Below, piece after piece: positions 2,078 to 35,234 of a stretch of 42,805 nucleotides of DNA. The notes beneath the pieces were generated by a model. It searched no databases and was not told the origin of the DNA. It saw only the letters and a list, made by a program, of their open reading frames with translations. Source of the DNA: Escherichia phage Shy; the sequence record OR996328. One strand, given 5' to 3'. The position numbers and the translations under genes are program-made. Position 1 is the stretch's first letter; every line of letters begins with the position of its first letter.

Positions 2078-3625
2078 ATGCCAAACGTATCGTTTATTCG
2101 CCCGGAACTTGCCGCAGTAATGCCGCTGTACAAAAAGATTCGGGATTGTTTGTCCGGTTCGGACAAAGTAAAGGCGGCCGGTGTCGTCTATTTGCCGATG
2201 CCGAACGAAGCCGATAAGTCGCCGGAAAACATCGCCCGTTACAAGGGCTATAAAGGCCGCGCCGTGTTCTACAACGTCGCACGCCGAACGCTGGCCGGTC
2301 TGTCGGGCCAAGTGTTCGCCCGCGACCCCGTGTCGGAAATTCCCGACGCACTGGATATAGTCGAAACCGACGCAACCGGAACCGGCGTATCGGCCGCACA
2401 ACAAGCTAAACGCCTGTTGAATTACGCACTTGGTTATGCGCGTGGCGGTATTTACGTCGATTATCCGAATACCGGCGAAGAAGGCGCAACCAAGAAAGAA
2501 CTAGACGCCGGGCACCTTCGCCCGACGATTACCGTTTGCGACCCGAATACCGTTGTCAACTGGCGTACAATTCAGGTTGGCGCTAAAACCCTGCTGTCGC
2601 TGGTCGTAATCGCCGAATCTTGGCCGTTCTACGACGACGGCTTCGAAATCAAACACGGTTGCCAATTCCGCGTTATGTCGCTGGAATACGAAGCCGACGA
2701 AAACGGTAACGTTGTCGGCGAAACGAAATACAAAGTCGAAATCTACCGGGAAAAGTCGCCGACGGTTTGGAACGGCGATAACATCCCGAAGAACAAATCG
2801 TTCGAACTGAAAGAAGGCCCGTTTTATCCAACCGGCCCGGACGGTTCGAACATCCAAGAAATCCCGTTTATGTTCGTCGGTTCGGAAAACAACGATACGT
2901 CGGTCGATAACCCGCCGTTCATTGACCTTTGCGAACTGAACTTAGCGCATTACCGCAATTCGGCCGATTACGAAGAAGCGTGTTACGTCATGGGCCAGCC
3001 GACTTACTGGTTCAGCGGTCTTACCGAAGAATGGATGAAAAACGTTCTTGGCGGCCAAATCAAGTTGGGTTCGTGGGGCGGCGTCGCACTTCCGCCGAAT
3101 GCGCAAGGCGGCTTGCTGCAAATGCAGCCGAATACCATGCCGTTCGAAGCAATGGGCCACAAAGAAAACCAAATGGTCGCATTGGGCGCAAAGCTGGTCG
3201 AACAAAAGTCGGTACAACGTACCGCAACCGAAGCGCAACAAGACGAAGCCGCCGAATCGTCGTTCTTGGCCGCAACTGCGAAGAACGTATCGGCCGCGTT
3301 CGAATGGGCCTTCGGCTGGTGCGCGTTCTATATGGGTTTGGACGAATCCAAAATCGTATATCAACTTAACACCGACTTCGACTTGATGAAACTTTCGGCC
3401 GCAGACCGCGCCGAAACTATCAAGGAATGGCAAGGCGGCGCACTTACCTTCGCCGAAATGCGGGCCGTACTTCGTAAAGGTGGCGTCGCCACCGAAGACG
3501 ATGCCGAAGCGAAAAAGAAAATCGACCAAGAACAAGCCGACCAAATCGCGGCCGCTGCAAAGGCTATGGGTGAAGACCCGGCCGCCAGCAATCCGCAGCC
3601 GTCTAATGTGGGCAACGGGGGTTAA
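2078..3625 (+). CDS. portal protein
   Basis: 515 aa ORF directly after terminase; AAAGGGG RBS; acidic/low-complexity C-terminus typical of portals. Confidence 0.7.
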   Translation: MPNVSFIRPELAAVMPLYKKIRDCLSGSDKVKAAGVVYLPMPNEADKSPENIARYKGYKGRAVFYNVARRTLAGLSGQVFARDPVSEIPDALDIVETDATGTGVSAAQQAKRLLNYALGYARGGIYVDYPNTGEEGATKKELDAGHLRPTITVCDPNTVVNWRTIQVGAKTLLSLVVIAESWPFYDDGFEIKHGCQFRVMSLEYEADENGNVVGETKYKVEIYREKSPTVWNGDNIPKNKSFELKEGPFYPTGPDGSNIQEIPFMFVGSENNDTSVDNPPFIDLCELNLAHYRNSADYEEACYVMGQPTYWFSGLTEEWMKNVLGGQIKLGSWGGVALPPNAQGGLLQMQPNTMPFEAMGHKENQMVALGAKLVEQKSVQRTATEAQQDEAAESSFLAATAKNVSAAFEWAFGWCAFYMGLDESKIVYQLNTDFDLMKLSAADRAETIKEWQGGALTFAEMRAVLRKGGVATEDDAEAKKKIDQEQADQIAAAAKAMGEDPAASNPQPSNVGNGG

Positions 3626-19538: not shown

Positions 19539-22003
19539 TGCCCGCCGTACTTCCCGTAATTGCAATCGCCGTTGCGGCCGTGGTCGGTACGACGACCGCG
19601 CTTGTTATCGGTACGATTGTCGCCGTCGGCTTAACGCTGGCAATGTCGCGCAATATGTCCGGGGTTCAATCGTCACCGAACCCGGTTGGTACGACGTACC
19701 AGACGAACCCGTTATCGCTTACCTTTCAGGCCGACGCCCCGCGCCGTATGGTCTATGGGAAAGCGCGGATTTCTGGCGTCGTTAGTTACGCCAACGTATC
19801 CGGCGACGGTTACGAATATCTTTGGATGGTCGTTGTAATTGCAGCGCACCGAATCCAAGAAGTTACGCAAATCTATTTCGACGGCGAAGCCGGGCCGGAT
19901 GTTGCGGCGGGCTGGTATGAATGGTGGTATTACGACGGTTCGCAAACCGCCGTTGACCCGCAGTTGCACGCGACTTTCAGCGAATACACCGCCGATTGCA
20001 TCTTGACCGGTTGCGCGTATGCGGTCGTTAAGCTGAAATACGATAAAACCGCTTGGAAGAACGGCCGCCCTAACGTGCAATTCGACGTTAAAGGCAAACC
20101 GGTATACGACCCCCGCGACGGCTTGACCAAGTGGACGAACAACGGTGCGCTTTGCACCGCTGACTTTATGACTTCGGCCGACGGCTTGGGCGCAACTTCC
20201 GCCGAAATGGATTGGGAAACCGTTAAAGCCGCCGCCGACATTTCCGACCAAATCCCGGCAAGCATGGCCGCCAGTCTTTGCGACGGCCGATATACAATCG
20301 ACGGTGTTGTCGAACTTTCGACCAAGAACGGCGACACAATTTCGCAAATGCTTTCGGCTTGTGCCGGTACTGTCGTATGGACGGAAGGCGTATACCGCCT
20401 GTTTGTCGGTGCGGCCCGTACCGCTGTTTCGCGCCAGATTACGGCCGAAGACTTGCGGGATAATCCGTCGCTTCAACCGCGCACGCCGACCGACCAATCG
20501 TTTAACAGCGTCAAGGGTACTTTCCTTGATTCTACGAACGGTTGGGTATTTAACGACTTCCCGCCAGTATCCGGCGCTGAATATATCGCACAAGACGGCG
20601 GTATTCAGCAATTTAAAGATATCGTGTTGAACTTCACGACTTCGCCGATTACAGCGCAACGACTGGCAACCATCTTCTTACGCCGCGCACGGCTTGAAAA
20701 GACGATTACCCTTCCGTGCAAATGGACGGTATTTAATTACGAAGTTTGGGACGTTGTACCGCTGAACTTGCCCCAACTCGGTTGGATTTCGAAGCTGTTT
20801 CAAATTACCGATTGGAAAATGACGCCGCCGACCAATACCGACCCCGGCGGCATCGAACTAACGCTAGTTGAATACAGCGACGACATTTATTCCGACGATA
20901 TGGACTTAAAGCCGATTGACGGCGGCGGTCAAATCATCGTACCGGATGTTACCCAACCGAAGCCGTTGTCGGTTCTGTACGCGACTTCGGGCGTTACCGC
21001 TGTTGAACCGGGCACCAACAAACCCCGCGTTCGCTTTGACTGGCCGCAATCCGCCGATATTTACGTCGTTGGTTACGAACTGGCTTACGGCAAGTATCCG
21101 TTTACGCCTGTCGATTCCGACTATATCTTTATGTCGGGTCGCACGACGATAACGTATACAACGCCGCCGCTTGGCGCTGGCGACACGTATATCGGCTATA
21201 TCCGAACCGTGAACAGTTACGAAAAGCGTTCTACGACTACGCCTTCGAATACGGTTGTCGTTGTCGGCCTTGGGTCTGAATACCCGGAAGCCGTCCAATC
21301 GCTGACCTTTAACGTTGTCGATAGCCTGTACGGCGACCTTGCTTGGTCGGCCCCGCTTCCGGGTTCGCTGGCGGCTTCGACGGTCATTGTGTGGGCAAAG
21401 TCGATTGAAGATTACGAACAAGGTGTTATCGTTGCGACGATTCCGCTTCCGCAAACGACGTTGCGCGTTCAACGCGAAATTCAAGACGGCGTTTACTTCG
21501 CGGCGTTCGTATCCGACGCGGGTATGGTCGGCGTTCCGGCAAGTGTTGCGGCAACCGGTCGCCCGCCCGCTACTATCGTCAAGCAAACCGGTTTTAGCAA
21601 GTACGAAGGCGATTTGATTAACGGTGTTTGGGTTACGCCGTACAAAGCGGTTGTCGATTCGCAACAACTGGCGGCGTCGCTTGGTTGGGAAGTGTTCGAT
21701 ATGATGGTTCCGGCACCTTTCGGCCAGTGCGAATACTGGTCTAAAGATGCGACGTATCAGGCACCGCCCGCAACCCTTCGTGTATCCGGTTCGGTCGGCT
21801 GGCTTCGTTCGCCAAACATTCCGGGCGTATTGCCGACTTTGAATGCGTCGGCGCAAGTGGCGCATTTCGATAGTACCGAATACCAACAAGGGCAATTCGT
21901 ATTAACCGGCGATGCCAATATTAAACTTGGTTTCCGGGCTACCGTTACCGACCCCCAAGGCGTACAATTCTTGGGCCTTAATTCGACGTTGGAGAAACTA
22001 TAA
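19523..22003 (+). CDS. putative host specificity / central tail fibre protein (J-like)
   Basis: 826 aa; hydrophobic N-terminal segment; last large gene of the tail-tip cluster. Confidence 0.45.
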   Translation: MGVPLMPAVLPVIAIAVAAVVGTTTALVIGTIVAVGLTLAMSRNMSGVQSSPNPVGTTYQTNPLSLTFQADAPRRMVYGKARISGVVSYANVSGDGYEYLWMVVVIAAHRIQEVTQIYFDGEAGPDVAAGWYEWWYYDGSQTAVDPQLHATFSEYTADCILTGCAYAVVKLKYDKTAWKNGRPNVQFDVKGKPVYDPRDGLTKWTNNGALCTADFMTSADGLGATSAEMDWETVKAAADISDQIPASMAASLCDGRYTIDGVVELSTKNGDTISQMLSACAGTVVWTEGVYRLFVGAARTAVSRQITAEDLRDNPSLQPRTPTDQSFNSVKGTFLDSTNGWVFNDFPPVSGAEYIAQDGGIQQFKDIVLNFTTSPITAQRLATIFLRRARLEKTITLPCKWTVFNYEVWDVVPLNLPQLGWISKLFQITDWKMTPPTNTDPGGIELTLVEYSDDIYSDDMDLKPIDGGGQIIVPDVTQPKPLSVLYATSGVTAVEPGTNKPRVRFDWPQSADIYVVGYELAYGKYPFTPVDSDYIFMSGRTTITYTTPPLGAGDTYIGYIRTVNSYEKRSTTTPSNTVVVVGLGSEYPEAVQSLTFNVVDSLYGDLAWSAPLPGSLAASTVIVWAKSIEDYEQGVIVATIPLPQTTLRVQREIQDGVYFAAFVSDAGMVGVPASVAATGRPPATIVKQTGFSKYEGDLINGVWVTPYKAVVDSQQLAASLGWEVFDMMVPAPFGQCEYWSKDATYQAPPATLRVSGSVGWLRSPNIPGVLPTLNASAQVAHFDSTEYQQGQFVLTGDANIKLGFRATVTDPQGVQFLGLNSTLEKL

Positions 22004-31000: not shown

Positions 31001-31052
31001 AGTTTCACCTGAAAAGCCCGGCGGCCTAATGTGGGCAACCGGGCGTCGTTGA

Positions 31053-31520
31053 TTAACGTTTTTCTTTCGGTGCGACGATTTCAACCGACGGCGTACCGTC
31101 CGAAATCTTCAACACTTCGTCAATAATTTTCTTGAACTTCGGTTCAAGTTCGTTGTATTCGGAAACCGAAAGTTCTGGCTTCCATTTGACCAGACGGTTC
31201 GCGACGAACTGACCTTCGGGGCCAACCTTTTCGATTTTCGACAGCGCCTTATCGACGGCATCGTCTTTGTTGTTCAGGCTGTAATTCAGCTTGAACACGG
31301 CTTTCAGCTTGTAGCCGTTCGCCAAATCGACGTTTTTGGTGCCGGAAAGACCGGCGTTGTTCGGAAACATGCGGTCTACCATCGCCTTACGGGCCGCCGC
31401 TTCAATCGCTTTGAAGTGCGCCAGTTGTTTCGCCGCCGCTTCCCATTCGCCGATAAGCTGGTCGTTGGTTTTGGTGGCTTCGGTCGGCTGGCCCCATGCT
31501 TGCGCGTTGTTGTCGGTCAT
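31053..31520 (-). CDS. hypothetical protein
   Basis: 155 aa ORF with AAAGGG RBS between MazG and ATPase genes. Confidence 0.45.
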   Translation of the reverse strand: MTDNNAQAWGQPTEATKTNDQLIGEWEAAAKQLAHFKAIEAAARKAMVDRMFPNNAGLSGTKNVDLANGYKLKAVFKLNYSLNNKDDAVDKALSKIEKVGPEGQFVANRLVKWKPELSVSEYNELEPKFKKIIDEVLKISDGTPSVEIVAPKEKR

Positions 31521-31597
31521 TTCGATTACCCTTTCGTTAAACCGGGCCGACCAATTCGGCCCGTTGAATAGAAATATACGTCAATCGAACCGGCGCG

Positions 31598-32221
31598 TCA
31601 AGCGTCTTTTTCGCTTTCGATGCGATGTTTCAATTCGGCATCCGGCGAAGTGATACCCGGCAAGTTCGGTTGCATCAATTCCAGAATGTCGCGTTCGCCG
31701 CCAAGGTCGCGGTTATTCGCGTCGTATGCGGTAAACTTGTTCGGGTAGCGTTTGCGAAGTTTGGCGATGTTCGCCCGCATCATGCCGTCGATGCTGATTT
31801 CGGTTCCTTGGGCCAGTGCGGCCAGATACCAAAGAACGTCGCCGCCTTCTTCGCCAAGGTTCACAAGGTCGAAGCCGGTAGGCTGGCCGCCGAACTTGTT
31901 AATCAGTGCGGCGATAAGACCGTCGGCCAGTTCGCCCGCTTCGGTGCCGACGCCGATGATTGCGTGCGCGATGGTTTCTTCGGCCGAAGTCCAAGGCATT
32001 TCGCTGGATTCGATGGATTCTTCGGGAACGAACATCGGCATCGCTTCGACGTTGCGGCCGTAGAACAGGCGTTTCTTGATTTCGTCAAGCCGGGCGGCGG
32101 CGATGCTGAACGCTTGCAGTGCGCCAAGCAATTCGGCACGGCTTACGAATTCGCCAAAGAACGAAGCCGACAGGGTTTGCACGGCTTCCGCTTGATAGTT
32201 GAAGGGTTTGGGTTGGGTCAT
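31598..32221 (-). CDS. MazG-like nucleoside triphosphate pyrophosphohydrolase
   Basis: 207 aa; GTEAGELADGL and LGEEGGDVLWYL (EExxE/D) MazG signatures; first gene of leftward operon. Confidence 0.7.
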   Translation of the reverse strand: MTQPKPFNYQAEAVQTLSASFFGEFVSRAELLGALQAFSIAAARLDEIKKRLFYGRNVEAMPMFVPEESIESSEMPWTSAEETIAHAIIGVGTEAGELADGLIAALINKFGGQPTGFDLVNLGEEGGDVLWYLAALAQGTEISIDGMMRANIAKLRKRYPNKFTAYDANNRDLGGERDILELMQPNLPGITSPDAELKHRIESEKDA

Positions 32222-32271
32222 TGGGACGACTCCGGTTAGGGTTGCGGCCGGGGGTTCCCAACCGTGCCCAT

Positions 32272-32300
32272 ATAGTAGCGCCGGGGCTTGCGTGCGTCAA
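32272..32300 (-). promoter_or_regulatory. sigma70-like promoter for leftward replication operon
   Basis: Minus strand: TTGACG-17 nt-TACTAT about 45 nt upstream of the MazG start. Confidence 0.5.
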
Positions 32301-32312
32301 CAGAATTTTAGC

Positions 32313-32341
32313 TTTACGTTACACCATTTTCGCCGTATCAT
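32313..32341 (+). promoter_or_regulatory. sigma70-like promoter for rightward early operon
   Basis: TTTACG-17 nt-TATCAT; back-to-back with the leftward promoter (12 bp between -35 elements). Confidence 0.4.
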
Positions 32342-32381
32342 TTCGGCCAATGACCACGCGCAACCGTAAGGAATGCCCACA

Positions 32382-32585
32382 ATGACCCAGCTTGTCACCG
32401 GTTGGCGGGATGAAACCCGGCAACTTCTGTTGAACCGCCCCCGCAACCTTGAATATCAGACCATCGCCAACGAAACCGGTTTGTCTGTTTCGTGGATTCG
32501 TGCGTTCGCGGTAGGCCAGTCGGATAACCCCGGCGTCGTCTTCGTCGAAACCCTTTATGTATATCTGAAAGCAAAGGCCAAGTAA
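32382..32585 (+). CDS. small HTH DNA-binding protein (Cro-like regulator candidate)
   Basis: 67 aa from ATG 32382 (AAGGA RBS); the track's ATG at 32373 abuts the RBS; helix-turn-helix-like YQTIANETGLSVSWIRAF. Confidence 0.4.
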   Translation: MTQLVTGWRDETRQLLLNRPRNLEYQTIANETGLSVSWIRAFAVGQSDNPGVVFVETLYVYLKAKAK

Positions 32586-34891
32586 TGTACCAGAACATAC
32601 CCGAAGAATTGCGGAATACGCCGCATTGGGTAGTTTGGCGTTACGAAGACACGCAAGCCGATAAGCCGACCAAAGTACCGTATTCGCCGCATAATTTCCA
32701 AACGCGGGCGAATGTCAACGAACCGTCAACTTTCGGAACGTTTGAGCAAGCCGCGCAAGCGTGCCAAGACGGATGGTTTAACGGCTTGGGCTTCGTGTTA
32801 ACGCAAAACGACCCGTATTGCTTTATCGACCTTGACGATACGGACGGCGACCCGAAATTGTACGCCGACCAAATCACGATTTACCAACGGCTAGGGTCGT
32901 ATACCGAACTTTCGCCAAGCGGTAAGGGCGTGCATATCATCGTAAAAGGTGCGTTGCCAGCCGGTCGCAAGCGTAACCGTATTGAACTGTATTCGTCCGG
33001 TCGCTTTATGACCATGACGGGTAATTTCCTTAACGGTTCGAACCCGGCTATCGAAGACCGTAACGATATGGTCAACGAACTTTATACCCTGTTGGGCGGT
33101 AAAGAAGAAAAGACATATTACGACGGCAACGAACCACAAACCAAGTCGGACGACGAAGTTATCGAAATCGCACGCAATGCGGAAAACGGCGCGAAGTTTA
33201 TGTCGTTGCATAACGGCGATTGGGTCGGCCTGTATCCGTCGCAATCCGAAGCCGACTTAGCGTATATCAACATTTTGGCGTTTTATACCCAAAACCGCGA
33301 ACAGCTTACCCGGATGTTCAAAGCGTCGCCGTTGGGCGCACGCGACAAACAAACGTCGATTCGTGGCGTCGGTTATATCGACTACATGATTAACAAGTCT
33401 TTCGACCGCATGTTGCCGCCAGTCGATACCGCCGCACTTATGAACCGGCTTAACGAAGCATTGCAACAAAGCCGCGTCGCAGTGCAACAGGAAGCCGCCA
33501 GCGTGCCGACCGCCGAATATATCCCCGAACCCCAAGGCGATACGCCGTACACCGTGCCGCCCGGCCTTATGGGCGAAATCGCGCAATTCATTTACCAGCA
33601 AGCGCCCCGGCCCGTACCGGAAATCGCGCTTACGGCCGCTATTGGCTTGATGGCTGGTATATGTGGGCGTGCGTACAACGTGTCGAATACCGGATTGAAC
33701 CAATACGTTATGTTGTTGGCCCCAACCGGCACCGGTAAAGAAGCAATCGCAAAGGGCATTGAAAAGCTAATGGGACAAGTGCAACGCACCGTGCCAGCGG
33801 CTAACGAATTCATCGGCCCGGCTGAAATCGCATCGGCGCAAGCGTTGGTTAAATATATGTCGAAAGGCCCGACCAGCTTTGTAAGCATCGTCGGCGAAAT
33901 CGGTATCGCATTGCAGCAAATGACCGACCCCCGCGCACCGACGCACCTTGTCGGCTTGCGCCGCCTGTTGCTTGACCTGTTCAACAAGTCCGGCGAAGGT
34001 TCGGTTTTGCGTCCGACCATCTATTCGGATAAAGAAAAGAATACGGCTTCGGTTCTGGCACCGTCTTACACGATGCTAGGCGAATCGACGCCCGAACGCT
34101 TTTACGAATTCCTTGATGAAATGATGATTAGCGAAGGTTTGTTGCCGCGCTTTACCATCATCGAATACCGGGGAAAGCGGCCGTCTATGAACGAAGGCCA
34201 CGCGTTCGTAATGCCGTCGAATGAACTGGTCGAACGTATGGCGCAATTGTGCGCGCAAGCGTTGATGCTGAACAACTCGCATAAAGCGGTGCATATCCGC
34301 GTATCGCCGGAAGCGAAAGAACTGTTCGACGCTTTCAACGAAGAATGCGACAAGCGAATTAACAACGCATCCCGCGAAGTCACGCGCCACCTTTGGAACC
34401 GTGCCCACATTAAGGCCATGAAACTAGCCGGGCTGGTTGCCGTCGGTTGTGACCCGTATAACCCGACCATTGATGCCAGCGCCGCCGCTTGGGCCTTGCG
34501 TATCGTTGAAGCGGATTCGAACAACCTGTTAGGTCGGTTCAATAGCGGCGAAGTCGGCCAGAACAGCAACGAAACCAAACAGCTTAACGAAATGGTACGC
34601 GTGATTCGCGAATACGTCGTTCGGCCTTGGTCGGAAGTGGCGTCGTATGGCGGGTCGGCAATGATGCACGGCGAACGCATTATTCCGTATCCGTACCTTC
34701 AACGTAAATTGGCTAACCTATCCGCTTTCAAAGGCGAACGAATCACGGCATCCGACGTTATCCGACGCACCTTGAAGACGCTTTGCGACCGTGGCGACAT
34801 TGCGGAATTGGGTAAAGGTCAATTGATTGATAAGTTCGGATTCCGTGGCGTTGCGTACATGATTTCGGCACCACGGGCGTTCGGCTTCTAG
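32585..34891 (+). CDS. DNA primase-polymerase (AEP-type N-terminal domain) with C-terminal NTPase-like domain
   Basis: 768 aa; HWVVWRY...KVPY...FIDLDDTDG...GKGVHIIVKG resembles prim-pol domain; degenerate P-loop LLAPTGTGKE downstream. Confidence 0.6.
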   Translation: MYQNIPEELRNTPHWVVWRYEDTQADKPTKVPYSPHNFQTRANVNEPSTFGTFEQAAQACQDGWFNGLGFVLTQNDPYCFIDLDDTDGDPKLYADQITIYQRLGSYTELSPSGKGVHIIVKGALPAGRKRNRIELYSSGRFMTMTGNFLNGSNPAIEDRNDMVNELYTLLGGKEEKTYYDGNEPQTKSDDEVIEIARNAENGAKFMSLHNGDWVGLYPSQSEADLAYINILAFYTQNREQLTRMFKASPLGARDKQTSIRGVGYIDYMINKSFDRMLPPVDTAALMNRLNEALQQSRVAVQQEAASVPTAEYIPEPQGDTPYTVPPGLMGEIAQFIYQQAPRPVPEIALTAAIGLMAGICGRAYNVSNTGLNQYVMLLAPTGTGKEAIAKGIEKLMGQVQRTVPAANEFIGPAEIASAQALVKYMSKGPTSFVSIVGEIGIALQQMTDPRAPTHLVGLRRLLLDLFNKSGEGSVLRPTIYSDKEKNTASVLAPSYTMLGESTPERFYEFLDEMMISEGLLPRFTIIEYRGKRPSMNEGHAFVMPSNELVERMAQLCAQALMLNNSHKAVHIRVSPEAKELFDAFNEECDKRINNASREVTRHLWNRAHIKAMKLAGLVAVGCDPYNPTIDASAAAWALRIVEADSNNLLGRFNSGEVGQNSNETKQLNEMVRVIREYVVRPWSEVASYGGSAMMHGERIIPYPYLQRKLANLSAFKGERITASDVIRRTLKTLCDRGDIAELGKGQLIDKFGFRGVAYMISAPRAFGF

Positions 34892-35160
34892 CTAACCTAT
34901 CCGACGAATCAGTATAAGGGGGCTAAGGCCGCGTATAAGCCCTAACCCCCTGATTTCATTGATGTTATAAGGGTATAAGGGTTATAAGGCGATAAACCTT
35001 CACTTCCCCTTCTATCCCCCAAACCGTCGGATTGGTTATCGGATTCCATACATTCACTAAAATAGGTACTATCCTTATACTCTTTATACTTTTTATATCT
35101 TCAATAAATACAAGGACTTAGGGCTAATCGGAACCCTTAAATTCGTATAAGGCTGGGGCC
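34892..35160. other. putative replication origin: iteron array plus AT-rich tract
   Basis: Six direct copies of GT(T)ATAAGG (34912, 34933, 34964, 34973, 34981, 35145) and one inverted (35072-35080); AT-rich TTATAC-repeat tract at 35051-35110; flanking CTATCCGAYGAA direct repeats. Confidence 0.5.
34964..34989 (+). repeat. tandem triple iteron GTTATAAGG-GTATAAGG-GTTATAAGG
   Basis: Read directly from sequence. Confidence 0.8.
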
Positions 35161-35205
35161 AAGGGGCAAACGACGAACCGATTTGCTATCCGATGAAAAA
35201 TCCGG

Positions 35206-35234
35206 TTGACAGTCCGACGGAATGCGGCGATACT
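35206..35234 (+). promoter_or_regulatory. sigma70-like promoter upstream of small early genes
   Basis: TTGACA-17 nt-GATACT; downstream AGGAG RBS and ATG at 35274. Confidence 0.5.

Follow-up and report, generated by a model that had tools for sequence, protein, structure and literature searches.

A conserved pair of divergent sigma-70-type promoters between the replication and primase operons of Escherichia phage Shy, a probable early transcription hub

Results

We analyzed the 160-bp intergenic region at 32222..32381 in the genome of Escherichia phage Shy (sequence record OR996328; one strand, 42,805 nucleotides, the whole of which is called the window here). According to the open reading frame (ORF) map, the annotation of a 98%-identical relative (the Juelich variant of Escherichia phage Halfdan), and the list of intergenic stretches, this gap is the sole divergent strand switch of the genome. 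On its left lies the gene of a MazG-like pyrophosphatase (31598..32221, minus strand; Pfam MazG; phrog_229, E = 4e-42), the first of a leftward operon, and on its right the gene of a 67-amino-acid (67-aa) helix-turn-helix (HTH) protein (32382..32585, plus strand), the first of a rightward operon, followed by a primase-helicase gene (32585..34891, plus strand). A sequence-only reading of this DNA had placed back-to-back promoters in the gap, one facing the MazG/replication operon and the other the HTH gene and primase; the flanking genes proved to be as described, and the data below support this arrangement.

The leftward promoter, P_L, consists of the -35 hexamer TTGACG (32295..32300, minus strand) and the -10 hexamer TACTAT (32272..32277, minus strand), and the rightward promoter, P_R, of a weak -35 hexamer TTTACG (32313..32318, plus strand), which begins with TTG in most relatives, and the -10 hexamer TATCAT (32336..32341, plus strand), with a 17-nt spacer in each. 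Both hexamer pairs were recovered from the sequence and by a promoter scan at the coordinates first proposed, and the two -35 hexamers are indeed 12 bp apart, separated by the A/T-rich segment CAGAATTTTAGC (32301-32312), a possible shared UP-like element. In hexamers and spacer, P_L and P_R each conform to the sigma-70 pattern, with 9 of 12 consensus positions matched. The P_L -10 hexamer lies 50 nt from the MazG ATG, which is preceded by the Shine-Dalgarno (SD) sequence GGAG at 32233..32230, and the P_R -10 hexamer lies 40 nt from the ATG of the small ORF, with the SD sequence AAGGA at 32368-32372. Taken alone, each site would be weak evidence, 9/12 matches being common by chance: a 5-kb scan returned 7 such sites compared to 3.4 +/- 2.1 in shuffles, and the whole genome holds 39. 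Their placement is more informative. Intergenic stretches of at least 25 bp together make up 3.1% of the genome, yet they contain 6 of the 39 promoter-like sites, with about 1.2 expected, and all six point to the downstream gene.

At the 5' end of the P_L leader, whose transcription start site (TSS) is predicted from the -10 hexamer at about 32265, a hairpin is predicted at 32245..32264 on the minus strand (-20 kcal/mol, z = -2.1). Folding of the P_R leader RNA gave no significant structure (z = +0.9), and Rfam returned no match in the window at the gathering threshold, nor at E <= 1 across 32000-32700. The two leaders mirror each other in that CAATGACC(CA) lies on both start codons, at 32214-32223 (minus strand) and 32380-32389 (plus strand), and CGCAACC(C/G)TAA is present in both, at 32236-32246 and 32359-32369. 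A third copy of CAATGACC is found at the predicted P_R start (32347-32355, plus strand). Genome-wide, this word occurs five times, with 1.1 expected, and the other two copies adjoin sites of the GCCCACA motif described below (21382-21396 and 39965-39977).

Homologous gaps were gathered from Halfdan, its Juelich variant, Pavpe01, Kakheti25, Kmi2C, Samson/PaMx42, KP1, RcTitan, Birtae, Loki, and one metagenomic relative, a search for related loci having yielded two metagenomic relatives. Their hosts include Klebsiella (Kmi2C, whose genome has a GC content of 39%), Rhodobacter (RcTitan), Sphingomonas (Birtae), and Acinetobacter (Loki). In all of the named phages, which infect gamma- or alpha-proteobacteria, the leftward promoter is found as TTGAC(A/G)-17-TAnnnT (with a spacer of 16 in Birtae), and in nine loci its -10 hexamer lies 42-50 nt from the leftward ATG. 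When the gaps were aligned by the leftward -35 hexamer, the GTCAA core was invariant in 9/9 lineages, T1, A2, and T6 of the -10 hexamer were kept in 8/9, and most columns of the spacer and flanks drifted, so that conservation is centered on the positions contacted by sigma-70. The rightward promoter, TTKNNN-17-TATNNT, lies 39-43 nt from the small-ORF ATG in six lineages (Halfdan, Pavpe01, Samson/PaMx42, KP1, Kmi2C, and the IMG/VR relative L005) and 26 nt from it in Kakheti25. Between Halfdan and Pavpe01, which are 76% identical overall, the core from one -10 hexamer to the other is far better conserved than both leaders. The -35 hexamers stand 12 bp apart in four lineages and 6-15 bp apart elsewhere, and an AATTTT-type tract separates them in Halfdan, Pavpe01, Samson, KP1, Kmi2C, RcTitan, Birtae, and Loki. 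The architecture is not conserved in the more distant primase-bearing phages Me-ZS1, NP1, and JenP2. Because of the intergenic placement and orientation of these sites and their conservation in nine independent lineages, we judge both promoters to be functional; on this comparative evidence, P_L and P_R are very probably real sigma-70-type promoters.

The first product of the rightward operon is the 67-aa protein, the start of which was assigned to the ATG at 32382 rather than that at 32373, as the former is conserved in Pavpe01 and used in the Halfdan record. Profile comparison matched this protein to phrog_6223, labelled "transcriptional repressor" (E = 1e-5). The best Pfam match was CYNS_N, itself a Cro/C1-type HTH, at 21 bits compared to a cutoff of 27.1, and searching the PDB directly with the sequence likewise gave weak matches; by sequence thresholds, the protein is thus not called a member of any Pfam HTH family. 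A word-indexed homologue search gave two relatives and an exhaustive HMMER search 274. The alignment of 69 sequences has the consensus ...LTxxxIAxxTGLxxxWLxxFAxGxxxNPGVxxVExLxxYL, HTH_31 was reached at E <= 0.01 by 9 of these 69 members, and the family profile matched XRE regulators in the PDB (DdrO, an immunity repressor, and SinR) across the whole HTH with E about 1e-3. The AlphaFold2 (AF2) model (pLDDT 80) shows four helices, at residues 6-17, 25-32, 36-44, and 52-66. By Foldseek, the closest folds are the N-terminal domain (NTD) of MuB, the AcrIIA15 HTH, SinR, C.AhdI, DdrO, and HipB (TM 0.56-0.67, probabilities 0.9-1.0), with 434 Cro and P22 c2 more distant (TM 0.43-0.47). The helical bundle of the model and its superposition on these structures are those of an XRE HTH domain, and we consider it highly probable, as far as modeling can tell, that the protein has the XRE/Cro-C1 fold. 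The product had been described as Cro-like from the sequence; the term is apt for its fold and for its place as first rightward gene, but is not supported in the functional sense of Cro, as there is no partner repressor gene.

Within the HTH gene, the segment at 32435-32492, which encodes helix 2-turn-helix 3, differs from the Juelich variant at 12 of about 58 bp, the two genomes being about 99% identical overall. It is one of the three most divergent clusters, beside those at 36.3 kb and 41.8-42.1 kb, and the changes are mostly synonymous. Judged by this pattern, the patch looks like recombination from a third lineage.

As far as gene order can tell, the HTH gene is linked to the primase gene no less closely than to the promoter, a point absent from the sequence-only reading. 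Its stop codon overlaps the primase ATG (TAATG), and by profile matches the downstream product is a primase-helicase that combines an AEP (archaeo-eukaryotic primase) prim-pol with an NrS-1-like helix-bundle domain and DUF3987 (phrog_3022, E = 5e-258; Pfam NrS1-1_pol-like_HBD, E = 4e-7; DUF3987, E = 1e-13). A tblastn search placed the 67-aa family immediately 5' of the primase gene in 47 records of phages that infect ten host genera, and all lineages examined show an overlap between the HTH gene and the primase start, including Loki and cyanophage Me-ZS1, where ORF33 and a "DNA-binding protein", respectively, belong to the same HTH family (hhalign 98.5% and 98.8%). In Loki, the HTH-primase pair (ORF32-33; locus L018, 31090-33589) is inverted compared to Halfdan and Septimatrevirus and heads the leftward operon, with the HTH gene still first beside the conserved TTGACA...AATTTT promoter. 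Because the two genes are inverted together, this comparison shows that the pair moves as a unit. The same slot in Kakheti25 is occupied by an unrelated small protein that is annotated in RefSeq as HTH DNA-binding and matched no Pfam family, and in YuA an HTH_31 gene directly precedes an unrelated primase. In RcTitan, gp36 (L010, 1180-1686) joins this HTH domain to a GIY-YIG nuclease.

Several annotations at this locus call for revision. The 67-aa HTH protein of Pavpe01 (Pavpe01_00053; L004, 3921-4124) is mislabelled "endonuclease", a label we trace to RcTitan gp36 because that protein fuses the nuclease to the HTH domain. In the Juelich variant, CDS0031 (L001, 4976-5089), a 37-aa "hypothetical protein", is called across P_R and is probably spurious, and the annotations of Samson and PaMx42 replace the short conserved ORF with one of 123 aa that covers the entire gap.

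The window is 98-99% identical to Halfdan (MH362766, Lokivirus) and its Juelich variant, an isolate on Pseudomonas taiwanensis. By this alignment, the window is a complete, circularly permuted genome, because the entire 42,857-bp Juelich genome aligns to it as a circular permutation. Packaging, head, and tail genes run rightward from 1 to about 22.65 kb; replication and recombination genes run leftward from about 32.2 to 22.75 kb; and the primase, small genes, lysis genes, and terminase run rightward from 32.38 kb to the end. The leftward operon encodes MazG, DUF7173, Sak4, SSB, a Cas4-type exonuclease, a helicase, a clamp-like factor, and the DNA polymerase, where it ends at about 22747. Within it, an internal promoter candidate, TTGACG-17-TATATT (10/12), lies between the MazG and DUF7173 genes (31601..31573, minus strand), and a further sigma-70-like intergenic site, TAGACT-17-TATGAT, lies upstream of the small terminase gene (42742-42770, plus strand); both face the gene that follows them.

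The sequence-only reading had seen no CI-like repressor or integrase and had left the lifestyle undecided. With the window recognized as the whole genome, the first observation extends to all of it and the second no longer applies: no integrase, excisionase, or CI is annotated in this complete genome or in six related complete genomes (the Juelich variant of Halfdan, Kakheti25, Kmi2C, RcTitan, Loki, and Pavpe01). Loki is described as strictly lytic and as having a headful genome that is circularly permuted (PMC5313236), and phages of the RcTitan cluster form clear plaques and are called virulent (PMC8601537). Because a complete genome lacks annotated integrase and CI genes and its relatives are lytic, we regard the lifestyle as settled, i.e., lytic, with no lysogeny switch.

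The largest non-coding stretch of the genome is found elsewhere, at 34892-35192 (core 34905-35155), just after the primase gene. The core contains about eight GTATAAGG-type iterons, direct and inverted, plus the AT-rich tract TTTATACTTTTTATATCTTCAATAAATAC, and two promoter-like sites are found at this place, at 35053-35081 and 35206-35234, both on the plus strand. From these features, 34905-35155 is likely the replication origin. In Loki, the divergent gap is 719 bp long (L018, 33590-34307) and carries ATAGTA-type iterons.

One copy of the heptamer GCCCACA lies at 32375..32381 on the plus strand, between the SD sequence and the ATG of the small ORF, and is conserved in Pavpe01; in Samson, KP1, Kmi2C, and Kakheti25 the motif is found 0-16 nt downstream of the rightward -10 hexamer (motif observations were listed for loci L014, L015, L016, L018, L019, L020, L021, and L023). 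It is a genome-wide motif, whose copy in the gap had gone unremarked in the sequence-only reading. The window contains 22 copies, compared to 4.0 +/- 2.0 in shuffles (maximum 10); with an expected count of about 2-4, we put the over-representation at 10- to 20-fold. Examples are found at 1924, 9352, 32375, and 39965 on the plus strand and at 3607, 7018, 31030, 35475, and 42338 on the minus strand, and the extended consensus is W-T-GCCCACA-W-T. Similar excess was found in Kakheti25 (30 copies observed, 1.5 expected), Kmi2C (28 and 1.6), RcTitan (26 and 1.3), and Pavpe01 (20 and 2.7), and in Loki for CCCACATT (20 and 0.7), and in these five genomes the motif is the top or near-top over-represented word besides the SD sequence. 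It is not over-represented in YuA (8 observed, 7.2 expected). Sister motifs mark more distant genomes: TGACCACA in NP1 (34 observed, 1.9 expected) and JenP2 (33 and 1.9), and GTCCACA(G) in Me-ZS1 (27 and 7.2). Variants of TG-N-CCACA thus mark other phages carrying this replication module; Sasha and PSA lack such a motif, although both encode homologues of the primase. A search of the literature found no description of the motif, the only match being an incidental one in a table that gives the ribosome-binding sites of phage KL1.

Most GCCCACA copies are intragenic, on both strands and in all reading frames. Their spacing is more even than random (coefficient of variation 0.50-0.68, compared to 0.95; P = 0.0003-0.02), and strand alternation exceeds expectation in 3/4 genomes (P <= 0.002). 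Among the 19 window sites that could be aligned to Pavpe01, 12 are intact, compared to 22.7% of background 7-mers (P = 2e-4); by this measure, GCCCACA is under purifying selection. Of five intergenic copies tested, three are in the loops of stable hairpins, and the other two gave no significant hairpin. These GC-rich hairpins (z = -2.1 to -3.2) lie at 31012-31058 (minus strand) of the window, at 31890-31932 (minus strand) of L014, and at 20155-20200 (plus strand) of L015. The one at 31012-31058 is followed by TTTT; at the corresponding place between the DUF7173 and Sak4 genes, PaMx42 and Samson have an annotated terminator.

Discussion

Altogether, the results point to the gap at 32222..32381 as the early transcription hub of a strictly lytic, Halfdan-like Lokivirus siphovirus, with an HTH protein that feeds back on the promoters, a reading that we hold to be moderately probable as a whole. 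According to this model, the host sigma-70 RNA polymerase holoenzyme would bind P_L and P_R on phage entry. P_L, with its predicted start near 32265 on the minus strand, would launch the replication/recombination operon of about 9.5 kb, and P_R, with a predicted start near 32348 on the plus strand, about 83 bp from that of P_L, would express the HTH protein and then, through translational coupling, the primase-helicase, probably reading on into the rightward arm. The A/T tract sits where a proximal UP element would for both promoters and is probably a shared UP-like element. Divergent transcription would also feed negative supercoiling back to the partner promoter. The HTH protein, as the first product of P_R, would most likely bind in or near the gap and, once accumulated, damp P_R and possibly P_L, acting as a negative autoregulator of the Aca or restriction-modification (R-M) controller type and not as one half of a CI/Cro bistable switch. 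That the HTH protein regulates these promoters is a tentative proposal, drawn by analogy, which we rate slightly short of an even chance.

Two known arrangements resemble the one proposed. In Aca and R-M C-protein circuits, a tiny XRE-type HTH protein is likewise encoded in the operon of the promoter that it is proposed to control here, and the AcrIIA15 HTH, C.AhdI, and C.Esp1396I are among the closest folds to the 67-aa protein (TM 0.60-0.66); unlike these circuits, no inverted-repeat operator was detected in the gap, and the downstream gene encodes a primase rather than an anti-CRISPR or restriction enzyme. The early promoters of virulent siphoviruses that depend on the host RNA polymerase, such as the sigma-70 promoters annotated in Pseudomonas phage YuA, similarly have -35/-10 consensus sequences in the few intergenic gaps of a compact genome, and YuA has an HTH_31 gene before the primase. 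In YuA, however, the primase is unrelated and the genes are essentially unidirectional, and its promoters were tested with reporters, whereas those of the Halfdan group are known from sequence.

Several observations weigh against this model. P_L and P_R match the consensus at only 9/12 positions each, with a weak -35 hexamer in P_R, and the literature yielded no TSS or promoter data for this phage group. Only some lineages share the GC-rich GCGCCGGGG block of the P_L spacer. A search for direct and inverted repeats across 32150-32650 found no operator-like set and no repeated dyad over the promoters: the 10-bp inverted repeat TGGGTCATTG/CAATGACCCA merely covers the two start codons, both proteins beginning with MTQ, and the other pairs are short and at chance level. 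The 67-aa protein falls below the Pfam gathering thresholds, and its matches to solved structures are marginal (profile E about 1e-3; Foldseek E > 0.07). Finally, the invariable overlap of the HTH and primase genes fits a primase-related role equally well.

The last point leads to the strongest alternative, in which the promoters are real but the HTH protein serves mainly as a partner of the primase-helicase, e.g., as an origin- or DNA-recognition or loading subunit, leaving P_L and P_R as unregulated early promoters. The overlap persists even in the inverted Loki pair and in Me-ZS1, an unrelated HTH-annotated protein fills the slot in Kakheti25, and an HTH_31 gene precedes an unrelated primase in YuA. 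The best structural match is the DNA-binding NTD of an AAA+ ATPase, MuB, the fusion to a GIY-YIG nuclease in RcTitan is what would be expected of a DNA-targeting module, and an iteron-rich, origin-like region lies just 3' of the primase. However, the HTH gene is also promoter-proximal in every case, so the linkage does not discriminate between the two roles; the other structural and sequence neighbors are all transcriptional regulators (SinR, C-proteins, DdrO, the Aca-like AcrIIA15, HipB, and immunity repressors). We consider a primarily primase-related role rather unlikely.

It is much less probable that the gap is itself the replication origin or primase entry site, with the promoter-like elements serving transcriptional activation of replication. 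The gap adjoins the primase gene and holds an A/T tract and one GCCCACA copy, the cumulative GC skew reaches its minimum at about 33-34 kb, and the equivalent gap of Loki carries iterons. Yet a repeat search in the 160 bp of 32222-32381 found neither iterons nor an AT-rich unwinding element, the turn in GC skew coincides with the switch in gene strand and is hence confounded, and the iteron region at 34.9-35.2 kb is the better candidate, in favor of which the gap was rejected as origin.

Less probable still is that the hexamers are chance matches and that both arms are transcribed from elsewhere or by a non-sigma-70 mechanism. The frequency of 9/12 sites in the 5-kb scan and in the genome speaks for this view, as do the literature searches, which returned no experimental TSS data, but chance would hardly preserve elements with shared spacers and ATG distances across nine lineages with varied hosts and GC contents of 39 to 55%, nor restrict the conserved bases mainly to sigma-70 contact positions, and a phage RNA polymerase is not annotated in the Juelich variant.

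The least probable reading, that of a lambda-like lysis/lysogeny switch with the small HTH protein as Cro and a CI-type repressor encoded elsewhere, can draw on the likeness to the lambdoid PR/PRM region (434, P22), i.e., divergent, back-to-back sigma-70 promoters with a small all-helical Cro/C1-fold protein first rightward, and on the "transcriptional repressor" label of phrog_6223, but the window is a complete genome, its leftward gene encodes MazG instead of a divergent CI-type repressor, no tripartite operators were found, integration and maintenance genes are lacking in the six related complete genomes as well, and Loki and the clear-plaque RcTitan cluster are reported to be lytic. Because of these differences from lambdoid PR/PRM, the gap is not a bistable switch, and the suggestion of a regulatory switch region made from the sequence alone is not supported, there being neither a partner repressor gene nor repeated dyad-symmetric operators in the gap.

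As for the GCCCACA motif, its reverse complement, TGTGGGCA (TGTGG-N-CA), includes GTGG. In the template, GTG is recognized by the helix-bundle domain of the pRN1 prim-pol and GTGG/GTGA by that of NrS-1 (PMC8718748). Because GTGG is present in the reverse complement (TGTGGGC) and the phage primase has a domain matching NrS1-1_pol-like_HBD, our leading hypothesis, albeit a doubtful one built on sequence likeness, is that the TG-N-CCACA sites are extended signals at which the phage's own AEP prim-pol/helicase recognizes the template or starts primers. Strand-alternating, evenly spaced sites, one roughly every 2 kb, would then be written into the coding sequence, the variable base N would differ among lineages with diverged primases, and, through the copy next to the HTH-primase promoter, early transcription would be connected with the first priming events. 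The motifs of pRN1 ORF904 (GTG) and NrS-1 differ from the one here in being 3-4 nt long (one 8-nt site is also known for NrS-1) and in not being reported as over-represented or evenly spaced. Alternatively, the motif may act as a Chi-like signal that is read by the helicase and Cas4-type nuclease of the phage itself, or it may be bound by some other conserved protein.

Three further candidates for the motif were set aside. An operator of the HTH protein is unlikely, given that Kakheti25, which lacks that HTH family, keeps 30 copies and that most copies are intragenic and on both strands. The consensus of the DnaA box is TTATCCACA, in which the T at position 4 is highly conserved; the motif differs from it at two positions, including this T, and has the 3' extension CACAWT. 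A host Chi site is also unlikely, the motif being common to phages of E. coli/Pseudomonas, Klebsiella, Acinetobacter, and Rhodobacter.

Of the two subjects, the motif is the more novel lead. It is selectively maintained in phages that infect alpha- and gamma-proteobacteria, and sister motifs are found in both Queuovirinae and a cyanophage. Should it prove to be a priming signal, phages would offer a case, open to direct test, of lagging-strand or re-initiation priming that is programmed by sequence. The gap itself, although conserved, is an ordinary phage control region, a conventional hub of divergent and probably early promoters. Its description fixes the transcriptional layout for widespread lytic siphoviruses (Lokivirus, Septimatrevirus, Titanvirus, and relatives) and corrects two annotation errors, the Pavpe01 "endonuclease" and the probably spurious Juelich ORF. 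Some phages of the group are used in therapy against Pseudomonas, Stenotrophomonas, and Acinetobacter, and the hub offers defined promoters for engineering.

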